A DNA stretch of 64,000 nt. It comes from Gammaproteobacteria bacterium. Its GTDB lineage: Bacteria > Pseudomonadota > Gammaproteobacteria > CAJXQU01. This document shows positions 10,574 to 15,965 of this stretch, piece after piece. Position numbers and translations under genes: made by a program. The stretch lies in assembly GCA_965238175.1 (NCBI GenBank), contig CBDEGZ010000003.1, positions 3,168,001 to 3,232,000 of the forward strand, written 5' to 3'. The first letter of the stretch is position 1; each line of letters starts with the position of its first letter. The notes below the pieces were generated by a model. That model saw only the letters and a list, made by a program, of their open reading frames with translations. It was not told the DNA's origin and made no database searches.

Positions 10574-10707
10574 GATTTTTGATTTTATTAATAATTTATA
10601 CCAGTTTTAGATTATTCGTTTTTAGGTAATGATTGTTTTATATATACCATGTCGCGAATTCATACAATAAGTGCAATTCCTTTGAATAAAAAAGAGGCTG
10701 GAAAATG

Positions 10708-13700
10708 TCAATTGTAAGGCCTGACCCCAATGTTTAGTTCGAGGCCTGTTGGGTAGTCGTTGCTGGCCGGGTAGGTGATGTCTTGTACTCGTCCGAGCGT
10801 GTCGTAATTTGTTTGGGTGAGGTAGGTTTTGTTGGTGGCTTCAAACTGTAGTCTTGTTTCAATTTCATTCGGACGGCCTAGGCTGTCGTAGCGAGTGAAG
10901 ATTTTTTCTTGCTGGCCTTTTTGGCTGTAGATGAGTTTGCCGATGGCCTTATCACTTGCGCCGGTGTTGCTGTGTGAGCCATAGACCCAGAAGCTGTTAC
11001 ATTCCGCGTCTGTGCGTGTGATCATGCGCCCTAGAATATCGTATTCCATGCGGGTGATTTGGCCTTTGGCGTCGGTTTGGCTTATCAGCTCTCCGAGGGC
11101 GTTGTAGCTGTATTCCCAGTCGCCCATGTCGGGGTCGTTCATGGCGATTTTGCGACCACGGGCGTCGTAGTCAATGGTGGTGATGTTGCCGAGGTGGTCA
11201 GTGACTTGGGTTTGGTTGCCCTGTGCATCATATTGGTAATAGGTGTTGAAGCCTAGGTTGTCGGTGGTTTGGATCAATTCGTCACGCGCATTAACTCGCC
11301 GGGTGGTTTTTTGGTTGAGGTGGTTGGTGAGGGTTGATGTTAGTCCCTTATATTCATAACCGGTGGTGCCGTTGGCGTCGGTTTCGGTTAGCGGCCGGCC
11401 GAGGGCGTCGTAGGTGAAGTTGGTCCAGTGAATGGGGCTCTGAAGATAGAAGGGTTGTGAGGTTCGTTTGATTTCACCGCGAATATTGTATTGGGTTGCT
11501 ACACTGATAATGCGGGGGTTAATGATATTTAGATCTGTGTAGACATTGCTGCCAGACAGATCATTTCCAAGACCATAGGTATTGACATATTGAATTCGGC
11601 CGAGTCGGTCAAAGGCTTCCAGAGCAGGCGCACTGCCAGTGCTTTGGGTGGTCAGGGAGGTCTTACAGTATTTAGCACACCAGTTACGAGTAAAGGTGGT
11701 TGTCGTGCTATCTGCCCGTGTCTCTTTTATCTTGCGTCCAAAGCTATCGTATTGCCAGGTGGTCTCCAGACCATTGGGGCCGGTGAGTTTGGTCATGACG
11801 CCAAAGCGCGCATCGTAGGTATGGGTTTCAGATTCGCCCATCGCATTGGTGATTTTGATCGGGAATTGCCCGGTGTTGTGACCGCCGCCGCTATATTCTG
11901 TTCGTGTGCTGCGGGCGGTGATGGCGGTAGATCCGCTGCCGCCCAAGGCGGTGACGCGGGTTTTGTTACCGTAGGCGTCGTATTGATAGGCGGTTTCTAA
12001 TCGAAGTGCGGGGTTATTCGGCTCGATGATTTCTTTCATCAGCATGCCGTGACCATTGATGTCGTATTCAAACGCCGATTTACGGGTTGCGGTCTTGCCG
12101 TTGGCGGTTTGCGTGACGGCGGTGGTGGTTAAGCGGCCTAGGTACCATTTGCTGATGGCGGTACTGGACGCGTCGTAGGTGTTGGTGGTTTCTGTGCGGA
12201 AGGTATTTTGGTCGAGGCCTGCGGTGGCCACTTTAATCGAGATCGGGTTACCATAATCATCGTAGACGTAGTCTGTAACGGTTTGTTTGACCATGGCTCC
12301 GCCGAGTTCGTATGTGACTTGGTTACTGGTTTGAAGATAGGGAAAATAGCTACCGTCGGTTCTTGCCACAACGTTATAGGTGTTGTTGGTTTGACTAATC
12401 AGGCTATTGTCTGCAATCAGGTTGCTACGTGTGTAGGCGACCATGCCGGCGAGTGGGAAGTCTTGATGGAACTCGGTCGCCGCATAGGTGCCTTGGGCTC
12501 TGTTGTAGGCAAACATCCAACGAAAACCAGCAAAACCACGGCCTTTTAGGTGGACTTTGGCGCCTGCATAGGTGTAGTCGACGTCGTTGGTGATGCCGAG
12601 GCCGAGGCCATTGTCATTTTTAACCTTGGAGACTACGTACATCGGGGCTTGGACGTCAAGGTAAGGGTAGCCTGTTGTTTTCGGAACCACATCCGCAGAT
12701 TTACTGTAGACGCTGCTGTCGGTCATCGGTTTGTATTCAATCTCGGTGGGGCTACCAAGGCTGTTGGTGACTTTGATAATGCGCATCTGGGGGCGGGTGT
12801 TGCCGATTCTGCAAGTGATATTATCGTCTTTTTGACTACGAAAACGAATGTAACAAGCGTCGGCGATGGCATCGCCGTTGACATCGGCAAAAATCTCATC
12901 GGTTGTCTTGCTATTCTCAAAATGTGTGTTTACCCCAGTCACCAGTGGCCCAAAGCCACTGCCATTAGAGAGTGCGCATGCACCAAATCTACACGCATCA
13001 ACAAGCCCATCGTTGTTGACGTCTTTCCACTTAAGTTTAACGTTTGTTTCGGGTTCCCTTTGCAATATGTCACATGAAATACCTTCATAGCTGAAACACG
13101 ATTTCTCAGGAACATATAACATTTCTTTTTCAATGGTGTTGGCGAAACCCGTACCGGTATACAAATTACACTTAGCATAAAATCGAGCTTCACTAATGGT
13201 GAATTTATATTGTTGATTCTCCAAAAGGCCTGGAACGAGGGGGGTCTTGCTTTGGATTTCTCCTTCTTTGAAGAGGCCACAGAGATCTTTATTGCCATCG
13301 CCATTGATATCCACCCAGGCGGTGGAGCCAGAGTAACCACTTACTGCATGGGCTGCCGTTTGATAGGGAGTGGGATCAAACCCGGTACCGGTAGAAAGGT
13401 TACAAACCTTACTGTTATCCGTCAGCGTCCGACAAAAATCCACCAGACCATCGCCATTGACGTCTTCCCAGTCACGGATATTTTTTCCATTCGCACCGGT
13501 TCCATAAACTAAACCTGTGCCGATAATAGTCTGACCAAAGCCAGTACCGGTTGAGAGCGTACAGGCGGCACGGTTAGATCCTGTCACTCGACAATAATCC
13601 GCTCGTCCATCACCATTAAAATCCACCCATCGGCGACCCTGCCCCTGCCCCCAGCCTTCCGGTGAGAGGCTACCTGAGAACGCGCTATTTAACCCATTAC

Positions 13701-13879
13701 CAGTTGATGTGTTACAGGCTATCTGTGGATTACTTGAGTTTCCAACGACGCGACAAAAATCCGCCTTGCCATCGCCATTAACGTCGATCCATTCACGGCC
13801 TTCATCATAGCCTTTATTAACGGTAAAACCGGCGCTGATGGGGGTTTGATTAAGCATTGTGCCATTAGAGACATGACAC
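10708..13879 (-). pseudogene. Internal fragment of an FG-GAP / TcdB-middle / YD-repeat (Tc/Rhs-type) protein, truncated at both ends
   Basis: DVNGDGxxDxC repeats, VTNSLGSPTEIEY and GRGFAGF (TcdB midN-like), YD repeats; the frame starts and ends inside CTGACCCC motifs and has no signal peptide or Rhs core. Confidence 0.85.
10721..10728 (+). repeat. CTGACCCC junction motif 1
   Basis: AGGC-CTGACCCC-AATG at the 3' truncation point of the FG-GAP/YD gene. Confidence 0.75.
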
Positions 13880-13904
13880 GAACCAAGGGGTCAGCCAGCT
13901 TGAT
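13880..13904 (-). repeat. REP-like motif 2 (left inverted repeat of RAYT1)
   Basis: GAACCAAGGGGTCAGCCAGCTTGAT; 23/25 inverted match to 14294-14318. Confidence 0.85.
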
Positions 13905-13934
13905 ATTTCACTTTGAAGCAAGTAATCTACCCAA

Positions 13935-14294
13935 ATGGCGCGCCTACCAAGAATAGTTATCCCAGACCAAGCACTGCATATCATGCACAGAGGCAATAAT
14001 CGTCAAGTCATCTTTGAAACAGAAGAAGATTTTATAAGGCTTAAGGATGATATTAACCACTCCTTATTAAAAGCAGACTGTCAGCTTCATGCCTATGTGA
14101 TAATGAATAACCACCTACACTTACTACTTACACCCAAAGATAAAGAGCAGCTCAAAGTCTTTATGCAATCGTTGAGTAATCGCTATGTGCGTTACTTCAA
14201 TGCTGTACGAAAACGAACCGGCACTCTTTGGGAAGGACGCTATAAATCTTGCTTAATCGACAGTGACAACTACCTGTTCACGCTCTATAGATAA
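13935..14294 (+). pseudogene. REP-associated tyrosine transposase (RAYT, HUH/Y1), C-terminally truncated
   Basis: MARLPR...HIMHRGNNRQVIF...YVIMNNHLHLLL (HUH)...RTGTLWEGRYKS; stops at YLFTLYR, just before the expected YIxxNP motif. Confidence 0.9.
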
Positions 14295-14629: not shown

Positions 14630-15389
14630 GTCCGATTATTGTGACTGATGCGGGTTTTCGAACACCTTGGTTTAACTTGATACGTTCGTTAGGTTGGGAT
14701 TTTGTTGGACGAGTAAGGAACCGCACCTTATGCCAACAAGCCTCAGCACCGGACTGGTTTCCAGCTAAGGATTTATATATACGCGCGACAGCAAAACCAA
14801 CGCACTTAGGCGCTTATCAACTGTGCCGCAACACACCGATGGTGGGTCAGTTCGTGGTGGTGCGTAAAAAACCACAAGGCCGAAAAGACAAAACGGCACA
14901 AGGTCATAAGAACCGTCGTAATAGTCATTCGCGCAAACAAGCTGAACGGGAAGCAGAGCCTTGGTTGTTGGTCACCTCATTAATACCAGAAAAAGAGTTT
15001 GCTAAACGAGTGACCAAACTTTATCAGACACGGATGCAAATTGAAGAGAGTTTTAGAGACTTGAAAACAGGGTTGAAGATGAACCTTGGTAATACACGAA
15101 TATTGAAACGTCTGACAGTGTTATTGGTGATTGCTGCGTTAGCTCAGTTTGTTTTATACCTGTTTGGAGTGGTAGTGACGATGGCGAATTTACATCGCCG
15201 TTATCAAGCCAATTCTGTCAAAGATAAAGTCGTATTGTCCTATCAGTTTGTTGGTTTGAGAGCGTTTAAAGATAGAAAATTAAAACTCAAAAAGGATGAT
15301 TGGATGCAGGCCTTTGAACACATACAACAACTCATGAGGGAGCCGTTGTATGTTTAAGTATACTTATCAATTTCGTGGGGATCCCTCAG
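14630..15389 (+). mobile_element. 5'-truncated IS4-family (IS10 group) element with its right terminal inverted repeat
   Basis: IVTDAGFRTPW, EPWLLVTSL, YQTRMQIEESFRDLK (YREK motif); the end TTCGTGGGGATCCCTCAG resembles IS10-type ends. Confidence 0.85.
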
Positions 15390-15408
15390 AGTCTGACCCC
15401 ATTTAATT
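15389..15408 (+). repeat. REP-like motif 5
   Basis: GAGTCTGACCCCATTTAATT directly at the IS4 right end. Confidence 0.85.
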
Positions 15409-15410
15409 TT

Positions 15411-15461
15411 GTGAGAGATGATAAACCCTGGAATGAGCAGCTGGCTCAAGACAGTTGCTGA
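15411..15461 (+). pseudogene. Tiny IS110 3'-end fragment
   Basis: Encodes VRDDKPWNEQLAQDSC*, compared with VRDNKLWSQQLAQDH* at the end of the IS110 relic near 2860-2905. Confidence 0.7.
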
Positions 15462-15472
15462 CCCCATTTAAT
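15458..15472 (+). repeat. REP-like motif 6 (partial)
   Basis: CTGACCCCATTTAAT overlapping the stop codon of the 15468-15965 gene. Confidence 0.75.
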
Positions 15473-15965
15473 GTTCACAAACTGTATCAGCCTTAAGTTT
15501 AATAATGTTCTTATATAAATTGCCGCCTCCATTCGAGATTAATATCCCCTTTTCAGGCAAGAGTATTTTTTCAGCACCATCTTGGCCGTATGCTAAGACC
15601 TGCTTTTCTTCAGACCAAGGTACCTCAACTTTTCGGAATGATTGGCTGAGCTTGATTGCTTGATCGCATGATATTTTTTCAATTAGGATATTTGGATTAA
15701 ACGTCCAAGGGTTTATGATATTTTTCTTATTCCAATAAAGCCTACTAGATTGCCCACTCTCGGTAAGAGGAAGTACAGAATTAACTGATGGATACCAATC
15801 TTTCTGCATTTGTATTTCATACCCTGAGTGAAGTTCCAATCTCTCTTTAAACTCCTCGGTTTTAGACAAAAAATAAAATATTGTGGGAAAGCTCCAAACG
15901 AAAATAATCACTATCATAGAAATAATACAGAGGTACTTAAGCGAAGATACAATTATTTTTTTCAT
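15468..15965 (-). CDS. Putative membrane-anchored immunity protein
   Basis: 165 aa, N-terminal TM helix, AT-rich, immediately downstream of the Rhs C-terminal gene. Confidence 0.65.
   Translation of the reverse strand: MKKIIVSSLKYLCIISMIVIIFVWSFPTIFYFLSKTEEFKERLELHSGYEIQMQKDWYPSVNSVLPLTESGQSSRLYWNKKNIINPWTFNPNILIEKISCDQAIKLSQSFRKVEVPWSEEKQVLAYGQDGAEKILLPEKGILISNGGGNLYKNIIKLKADTVCEH

Follow-up and report, generated by a model that had tools for sequence, protein, structure and literature searches.

A recurrent eight-base motif in a gammaproteobacterial toxin-gene mosaic as the probable terminal repeat core of TIRYT-type genes

In a 64-kb stretch of a 3.35-Mb gammaproteobacterial genome (positions 3168001-3232000 of contig C3 of genome G000; hereafter the window), the eight-base motif CTGACCCC, the reverse complement of GGGGTCAG, occurs six times, at 10721(+), 13887(-), 14304(+), 14614(+), 15393(+) and 15458(+), with all copies confined to 10721-15465. 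This span is a mosaic of gene fragments beside an Rhs toxin locus and holds two truncated genes of the RAYT type, i.e. genes for tyrosine transposases associated with repetitive extragenic palindromes (REPs). We propose, as the probable reading, that the motif is the core of the terminal inverted repeats (TIRs) of the genes described as TIRYTs or TIRtrons, and that the span is an accumulation of such units, now dead, in a genome laden with insertion sequences (IS). The initial annotation of this DNA had suggested a dedicated system, in which RAYT enzymes recombine gene fragments at a new kind of site and so diversify the Rhs locus. Our analysis upholds the connection with RAYT ends and their sub-types, finds no support for the dedicated role, and retains a weakened form of that interpretation as a rival which we judge improbable. 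If the six joints are element ends rather than a new system, as we believe, they are useful for annotation, and the case would show RAYT-type units and other IS piling up in, and eroding, a toxin gene copy in an IS-rich genome. Positions without a prefix refer to the window; those on the contig at large carry the prefix C3.

Three gene and repeat pairs behind the motif

The clustering in the window is far above chance, as had been claimed for the six copies in about 4.75 kb: 100 dinucleotide shuffles of the window contained a mean of 0.78 copies, and none of the 100 reached six. Over the genome as a whole the 8-mer is not enriched, with 34 copies against 40.6 predicted from base composition. 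Among 336 8-mers of the same composition the mean is 36.9 and the median 31, and 156 are at least as frequent as CTGACCCC, which leaves 34 copies to be set against some 37-41 expected. The 7-mer CTGACCC likewise shows no genome-wide excess (155 occurrences against a permutation mean of 194), and with both words lacking one, a genome-wide REP-like word was dropped as a candidate. The motif is thus no genome-wide repeat; it is concentrated at the window, at C3 630.7-631.8 kb and at C3 919.9-926 kb, and copies of one giant FG-GAP/YD-repeat gene occur at all three. TIR-type repeats hold 16 of the 34 copies, 15 of them at these three paralogous YD-toxin loci and the remaining one in a doublet near C3 2.528 Mb that belongs to the family called TIR-B below.

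Sorted by context, the motif copies fall into four small repeat families, A to D, so that the two subfamilies of the initial annotation give way to three RAYT/TIR families and a variant linked to IS110. In the latter, family D, CTGACCCC lies directly 3' of the last codons of an IS110-like transposase frame (window 15411-15461; C3 921710-921769). The other three families each accompany a RAYT gene of their own, giving the pairs RAYT1/TIR-A, RAYT2/TIR-C and RAYT3/TIR-B; the earlier suggestion that different sub-types go with different RAYT genes was thus sound. In these pairs the core lies in TIRs of about 25-30 nt. The motif of TIR-A and TIR-C is GGGGTCAG, which fits the consensus GGGGWSAS, while TIR-B carries GGGTCAG, with GGGGTCAG in two of its 14 units. 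Single TIRs fold no better than shuffled sequences (z -0.5 to +0.8) and were rejected as classical REPs for want of hairpin potential; no GTAG tag was seen in the repeat units of the families examined. The motif accordingly belongs to non-palindromic ends of RAYT-type Y1/HUH units, as had been supposed. That it is a new kind of site is not supported: it fits a core already described by Di Nocera (2013; BMC Genomics 14:522, PMC3733652) and Quentin (2018; PMC6006769).

Family A comprises ten units, one of them partial, and forms both ends of a 776-bp unit of which there are two full copies, 1 nt apart (C3 631058-631833 and 925192-925967). These hold the intact cognate RAYT that the initial annotation had proposed to look for. 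Bounded by inverted TIR-A, each has RAYT1, which encodes a 233-aa Y1/HUH protein, as its sole gene, and the stop codon TGA of RAYT1 lies inside the motif. The full protein matches Pfam Y1_Tnp (1.5e-13). The profile of a protein alignment (A1) matches the E. coli (Escherichia coli) TnpAREP structure, PDB 4er8, at E 3.5e-5; the H-x-H motif aligns, and the tyrosine of K-Y-I-E-M-N-P aligns with Y115. A phmmer search with RAYT1 alone against PDB sequences returned nothing at E 0.01, and RAYT1 has no match to NCBIfam transpos_IS200.

Besides the two intact copies the genome holds the deleted copy in the window, the three being 99.3-99.9% alike, and remnants; TIR-A also occurs as solos and as the partial copy. 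The inverted repeat reported around the window copy is real, with 25 nt (13880-13904 and 14294-14318) that are 92% complementary. In this copy the HUH motif is kept, and the frame stops one residue before tyrosine Y120 of the full protein, which aligns with the catalytic Y115 of E. coli TnpAREP (Y115F is a catalytic mutant; Corneloup 2021, PMC8266576). Since the stump of RAYT2 lacks its catalytic tyrosine as well, both RAYT enzymes of the window are, judged from their sequences, dead. Two further remnants were seen elsewhere: a RAYT1-like gene of which the 3' part remains, with 79% identity (C3 2790803-2791260), and whose right TIR has lost CTGAC of the core, and a 53-codon stump (C3 63978-64136).

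RAYT2 is present in this genome only as the 77-codon stump of the window, cut by the right end of the RAYT1 unit; it scores 19.3 bits on NCBIfam transpos_IS200, against a cut-off of 55. The hairpin at its start codon folds with z -6.5 as DNA on the plus strand and -6.75 on the minus strand. In another genome of the same genus (G002), TIR-C and the 16-bp hairpin likewise precede the RAYT2 orthologue, and this conserved hairpin may control expression. The 20-nt direct repeat noted earlier corresponds to TIR-C (14610-14629 and 15389-15408, 95%), with a weaker third copy at 15454-15473, and a related unit lies at C3 921574. The latter (C3 921565-921583) adjoins the stump of an IS3-like orfA (C3 921560-921712), and the only other, longer copy of this IS3-like element (C3 2070709-2071887) is itself cut by an IS of which the genome holds about 61 copies. 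We did not adopt TIR-C as an IS3-like terminal repeat, for the copy at C3 2070709 differs upstream of the common part and is cut.

RAYT3, the third Y1 gene (281 aa, C3 971169-972014), matches Pfam Y1_Tnp at 8e-13 and, with 83.3 bits, exceeds the 80-bit cut-off of NCBIfam REP_Tyr_transpos; on transpos_IS200 it reaches 16.6 bits against the cut-off of 55. Its repeat, TIR-B, numbers 14 units, of which two in inverted orientation flank the gene and others form three hairpin doublets of about 75 nt (DNA fold z -7.5) or stand singly.

Joints of the span and their proposed history

Every motif copy in the window stands at, or at most 12 nt from, a joint between unrelated DNA, as the initial annotation had recognized. 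In our reading the copies stand there because the motif lies a few bases, in fact 6-9 nt, in from the outer ends of mobile units; the joints fall at precise outer TIR ends. At the first (10721), the identity of the YD-gene fragment to three other genomic copies ends at 10740 and is followed by 12 bases of no assigned origin and then by a solo TIR-B whose outer end faces the YD gene. At the second (13887, left TIR-A) 2-3 nt separate the TIR from position 13878, where the fragment is cut at its 5' end, and at the third (14304, right TIR-A) the outer end at 14318 cuts RAYT2 after codon 77. The fourth (14614) is the meeting of the TIR-C outer end at 14629 with the interior of an IS10-like element, whose homology begins at 14630. 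The fifth (15393) had been placed at the end of an IS4-type transposase element; it is indeed near that end, but the intact right terminal repeat stops at 15389 and not at the motif. Beyond it come nine bases, AGTCTGACC, that would be the duplicated target and are also the first 9 nt of the second TIR-C unit. At the sixth (15458) the motif directly follows the last codons of an IS110-like gene, the TGA of the motif being the stop of that frame. RAYT ends therefore do not lie behind all six joints, as had been assumed, since two are explained by other elements, one IS10-like and one IS110-like.

Table. Features of the mosaic and of the adjoining Rhs tip, in window coordinates.
Feature	Position	Strand	Basis or remark
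Solo TIR-B unit, outer end 10728, motif 10721	10681..10728	+	Cognate repeat of RAYT3
Internal fragment of giant FG-GAP/YD-repeat (Rhs-family) toxin-like gene, cut at both ends	10740..13878	-	Pfam RHS_repeat 9.6e-34, FG-GAP_3 2e-12
RAYT1 TIRtron with internal deletion of ~333 bp (joint 14293/14294)	13880..14318	+	Comparison with full 776-bp copies
TIRs of this RAYT1 unit	left ~13880-13908, right ~14289-14318		
RAYT1 reading frame, cut to 119 aa	13935..14294	+	Pfam Y1_Tnp 8.1e-12
RAYT2, first 77 codons only	14317..14550	-	Pfam Y1_Tnp 7.3e-8 and alignment A1
Perfect 16-bp hairpin abutting RAYT2 start codon	14551..14588	.	100% complementary
TIR-C unit 1, upstream TIR of RAYT2, motif 14614	14605..14629	+	TIR type also flanks homologues in many genomes
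IS10-like (IS4 family) element without its 5' part	14630..15389	+	transpos_IS4_2 200.2 bits (cut-off 152)
TIR-C unit 2, motif 15393	15390..15410	+	Outer end joined to IS110-like scrap
Last 16 codons and stop of IS110-like transposase gene	15411..15461	+	98% identical to C3 921710-921769
Partial outer TIR-C segment 3, motif 15458, broken right after core	15458..15472	+	
165-aa open reading frame adjoining Rhs C-terminal tip	15468..15965	-	Stop inside TIR-C segment 3 repeat
Rhs core-end and C-terminal tip, 262 aa	15979..16767	-	Pfam RHS (PF03527) 9.7e-15

The fragment of the YD gene is 99.87% identical over 3139 nt to C3 915714-918852, which lies inside a full-length copy, and its open reading frame (10708-13857) runs into the TIR-B unit. 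It lies outside both flanking units, the outer ends of the TIR-B and RAYT1 units facing it, an arrangement that insertions into a gene copy would leave and that is not the one of a captured passenger.

The IS10-like element is 90% identical to a full copy (C3 1273738-1275074) with inverted ends and a 9-bp target duplication, AGCCTACCC; its DDE transposase, terminal repeats and duplication are those of the IS4 family. The 9-nt flanks of IS10-like ends resemble the core (GGTCAGACT, GGGTAGGCT, GCCTGACC), and as ends other than that in the window abut GGGTAGGCT, GCCTGACC and the like, insertions of this IS tend to fall within such cores or close to them. Short 11-nt pieces of IS10-like ends (CTGAGGGATCC / CTGATGAATCC) also occur right after TIR-B units, single or in tandem and without the rest of the IS (C3 967798-967830, 926713-926730 and 3040639-3040720); they may have been left behind by an element that repeatedly inserted at the TIR core and was lost again.

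For the IS110-like scrap, PF02371 gave no match even at E up to 1, with just 16-28 codons left (the frame at C3 921710-921769 runs to 28). By eye, it resembles the C-terminus and downstream region of a full IS110-family copy (C3 1729725-1730702). CTGACCC stands 3' of the IS110-like end in the window, at C3 921716 and at a different, full IS110-family copy (C3 1729697), and is either part of the right end of the element or part of its target. Such elements abound in this genome, where one IS has about 61 identical copies (its 16-mers were counted 61 times) and one IS110-family element yields 25 identical PF02371 matches.

From these arrangements we infer the following order of events. TIRYT-type units, now dead, would have entered a third copy of the YD/FG-GAP toxin-like gene and the DNA beside it, their enzymes presumably acting on single-stranded TIRs in the way that E. 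coli TnpAREP acts on REPs. An IS10-like element would then have inserted into a TIR core, with an IS110-like element sitting at another core, and deletions or recombination between near-identical copies may have removed the other halves of the interrupted genes.

Conservation of the TIR core and comparison with known systems

The pairing of gene and TIR extends across genera. Homologues of RAYT1 were found in 24 of 41 genomes searched, the source genome being counted, and in all six (6/6) other species of its genus. In a genome of a different family (G038), inverted copies of AATCAATGGGGTCAGACTCGATTGATT border a gene with 47% identity, again with the stop TGA in the motif, and another genome (G024) has a RAYT3-like gene flanked by inverted GGGGTCAGGTCTTGCC. 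Species-representative genomes yielded 573 confirmed relatives on scanning; of the 80 best, which were retained, 76 were usable and four had flanks that were too short. GGGTCAG occurs within 200 nt upstream in 56 of these 76 homologue loci (4 for the opposite orientation, taken as a control) and CTGACCC at or after the stop in 44 (control 1), with both in 42. The motif lies at a median of 72 nt from the ATG upstream and 5 nt from the stop downstream, and in 19 of the 76 it contains the stop TGA. An inverted repeat of at least 14 nt flanks 59 of the 76 genes and includes GGGGWSAS in 36. In very many Proteobacteria, one RAYT-like clade retains this TIR core at a constant distance, often with the stop codon enclosed in it. 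There is no strong sign of spread on plasmids, where homologues were found in 29 of 72,556 records, annotated as 'transposase' or unannotated.

Of the systems known, the closest is the TIRYT or TIRtron. PMC3733652 describes RAYT-like genes that have long flanking TIRs in place of REPs, some of these TIRs lying at about the same distance from the gene and sharing GGGGWSAS; they may overlap gene ends and form families of moderate size, as singles, dimers and groups. In PMC6006769, subclass 2.1 of TnpAREP is equated with TIRYT, with the consensus GGGG[AT][CG]A[CG]. Our genes agree in having a RAYT-like Y1/HUH protein (HUH and tyrosine in the full copies) with long, non-palindromic GGGGWSAS TIRs, one at a fixed short distance upstream and one at or over the 3' end of the gene, in TIRs that are also single or dimeric and moderate in number, and in the presence of several gene/TIR pairs per genome. 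They differ in that RAYT1 occurs in several near-identical copies, which is IS-like behaviour, and that all RAYT1 TIR units lie in YD-toxin loci. Group 1 RAYTs are reported by Bertels (2017; PMC5581495) to be the most IS-like.

With REP/REPIN-RAYT systems (Nunvar 2010; Bertels and Rainey 2011; for E. coli TnpAREP, Ton-Hoang 2012 and Corneloup 2021) the genes share the enzyme family, a repeat of their own flanking the gene in inverted orientation and, in the TIR-B doublets, REPIN-like hairpins. They were nonetheless not placed there, as single units are non-palindromic and lack the GTAG tag, the repeats number 10-14 copies and not hundreds, and RAYT1 is not single-copy. The IS200/IS605 family offers a Y1 HUH transposase, multiple identical copies and the absence of a target duplication, none being seen at RAYT1 units, but its ends have subterminal hairpins without terminal inverted repeats, whereas the units here have TIRs of 25-30 nt and no hairpin. 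With TIRs present and scores on the IS200 model far below its cut-off, this family was set aside too.

A fourth comparison concerns the locus rather than the enzyme. E. coli Rhs elements carry IS debris, e.g. H-rpt elements. The loci studied here resemble such debris in their orphan C-terminal modules, which collect insertion sequences and truncated gene copies, and differ in that the units are of RAYT type and that in two cases their ends are the 5' limits of orphan fragments.

Competing explanations and the neighbouring Rhs locus

Assigning confidence to the TIRYT reading requires that several findings be set against it. RAYT1 scores 73.5 bits on NCBIfam REP_Tyr_transpos, below the cut-off of 80. 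The C-terminal helix-turn-helix (HTH) domain reported for subclass 2.1 (Quentin 2018, PMC6006769) was not detected: Pfam searches at E up to 1 for Bac_DnaA_C, HTH_23 and HTH_28 found none in RAYT1, RAYT3 or the G038 homologue, a SelB-wing hint at E 0.061 being all that RAYT3 returned. Our literature search on TIRYT found no enzyme assay. The other half of an interrupted gene was found next door for none of the interrupted genes, which makes simple nested insertion insufficient; further deletions or recombination would have to be postulated. The inner edge of the right TIR-A is a break point, within 1-2 nt, in two joints, 14293/4 and C3 921835/6, where a solo TIR-A unit is joined to another YD fragment; as the two TIRs differ by one base, these are probably independent events, and site-specific cutting would account for them better than random deletion. 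A solo left TIR-A at C3 630773-630800 has an inner edge just as sharp. Lastly, none of the ten TIR-A units falls outside the three YD loci, and on four of their sides they adjoin YD-type gene fragments, an association stronger than plain IS debris predicts.

A rival reading is that TIRYT-driven rearrangement is still active, with the intact RAYT1 copies elsewhere in the genome cutting single-stranded TIRs in the core and at their edges and rejoining them to other DNA. The enzyme would then produce, as by-products and not as the output of a dedicated system, solo TIRs, deletions inside units, chimeric joints and orphan YD toxin modules truncated at the 5' end. Besides the shared inner edge, two YD fragments have their 5' ends exactly at TIR-A units (window 13878; C3 921836), and between the solo TIR-A at C3 630773-630800 and a full RAYT1 unit is boxed a 257-bp, in-frame piece of a divergent YD paralogue (C3 630801-631057; 41% protein identity to the main YD copies). 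Across the homologue loci, 29 of 101 TIRs have an exact 9-nt copy of their outer segment no more than 60 nt further out, against 1 of 101 on the inner side and 0 of 101 at a distance of 300 nt. The segment is reiterated up to four times in tandem (loci L031-L110, e.g. L067, L083, L088 and L110), and the same pattern appears in family A of the source genome (C3 631820-631850 and 630758-630800). Partial copies number 47, and in 37 the end falls no more than 5 nt after GGG; the commonest end is GGGTCA/G, as marked by the slash. Such partial copies suggest, from their sequence, that DNA was broken and rejoined inside the core, and their break points offer a guess at the TIRYT cleavage site. E. coli TnpAREP, for its part, cuts single-stranded REPs 5' or 3' at C/T and transfers strands in vitro (PMC8266576).

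Several of these observations have other possible sources, however. Homologous recombination between the closely alike RAYT1 copies also gives chimeric flanks, and the reiterations could stem from repeated self-targeted insertion or from replication slippage. That relatives show no conserved Rhs link tells against this reading too, and the contigs of two sequencing runs described below are unable to reveal minority joints. We consider ongoing rearrangement unlikely on balance, and it is equally with reserve that we entertain its corollary, that TIRYT cuts at about GGGTCA/G within GGGGTCAG and at the edges of the roughly 28-nt TIRs, with promiscuous rejoining. Were it true, cutting and rejoining would explain the tandem 'stutter' of outer TIR segments across many genera, as well as the solo TIRs, the precise internal deletion and the TIR-bounded, 5'-truncated YD fragments here, and RAYT1 would be a still-active HUH recombination engine seeding orphan toxin modules.

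Two further explanations carry far less weight with us. That the motif is mainly a preferred target of IS10-like and IS110-like elements, and not a RAYT end, gains something from the IS10-like right end abutting AGTCTGACC, from the IS10-like end fragments after TIR-B units (C3 926719, 967804 and 3040645-3040703) and from CTGACCC after the IS110-like 3' end at the three sites given above; IS that target REPs are moreover documented, e.g. ISPpu9 (PMC8450116). Yet targeting accounts for at most two of the six copies, and leaves unexplained both the inverted pairs around RAYT1 and RAYT3 and the conservation of the core beside homologues (56 and 44 of 76). It is refuted as a full explanation and, very improbable as the main one, stands only as a partial contribution. 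An assembly artefact or chance clustering has next to no claim on our belief. The region is rich in repeats, and short-read contigs break at several repeat edges, but the shuffles argue against chance, and Logan contigs from two public runs of one sample bridge 13878/13881 (X1 record 4) and cover 14260-14931, i.e. the deletion and the RAYT1/RAYT2 and TIR-C/IS10 joints (X1 record 6, X2 record 14). The assembly was probably built from these very runs, so that the agreement shows consistency and is not independent proof; where the contigs bridge them, the joints are real. Among the contig pieces listed, none spans 10723-10740 or 15277-15437, which gives them no say there either way. The listed 'joints' 14317 to 15411 and 11493 to 14289 reflect the paralogous arrangement at C3 921.8 kb, and that from 10552 to 15368 has only 22 letters on one side.

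On the TIRYT reading, which we continue to prefer, we do not take the span for a system serving the Rhs locus. Both RAYTs of the window are dead, and four of five relatives with RAYT homologues lack an RHS-repeat match (E 1e-5); a dedicated Rhs-diversifying system is on these grounds not supported. TIR-B units, moreover, lie mostly away from the four RHS loci of the genome.

The Rhs locus itself has the expected parts, with YD/RHS repeats, an RHS core end, and pairs of a downstream tip and a small open reading frame. The tip in the window lies downstream of a 1565-aa Rhs-family frame (16770-21467). The adjoining 165-aa frame has no Pfam or NCBIfam match, and its position suggests a putative immunity gene. 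Within the 1565-aa frame, near-identical modules of about 720 bp (about 240 aa) recur about four times, seen as shadows of open reading frames at 720-bp spacing. Elsewhere on the contig, at about C3 1730820-1730980, some 13 tandem copies of the 12-nt unit TTTAATAACTTC stand between one copy of the 61-copy IS and a full IS110-family element, on the left side of the latter.

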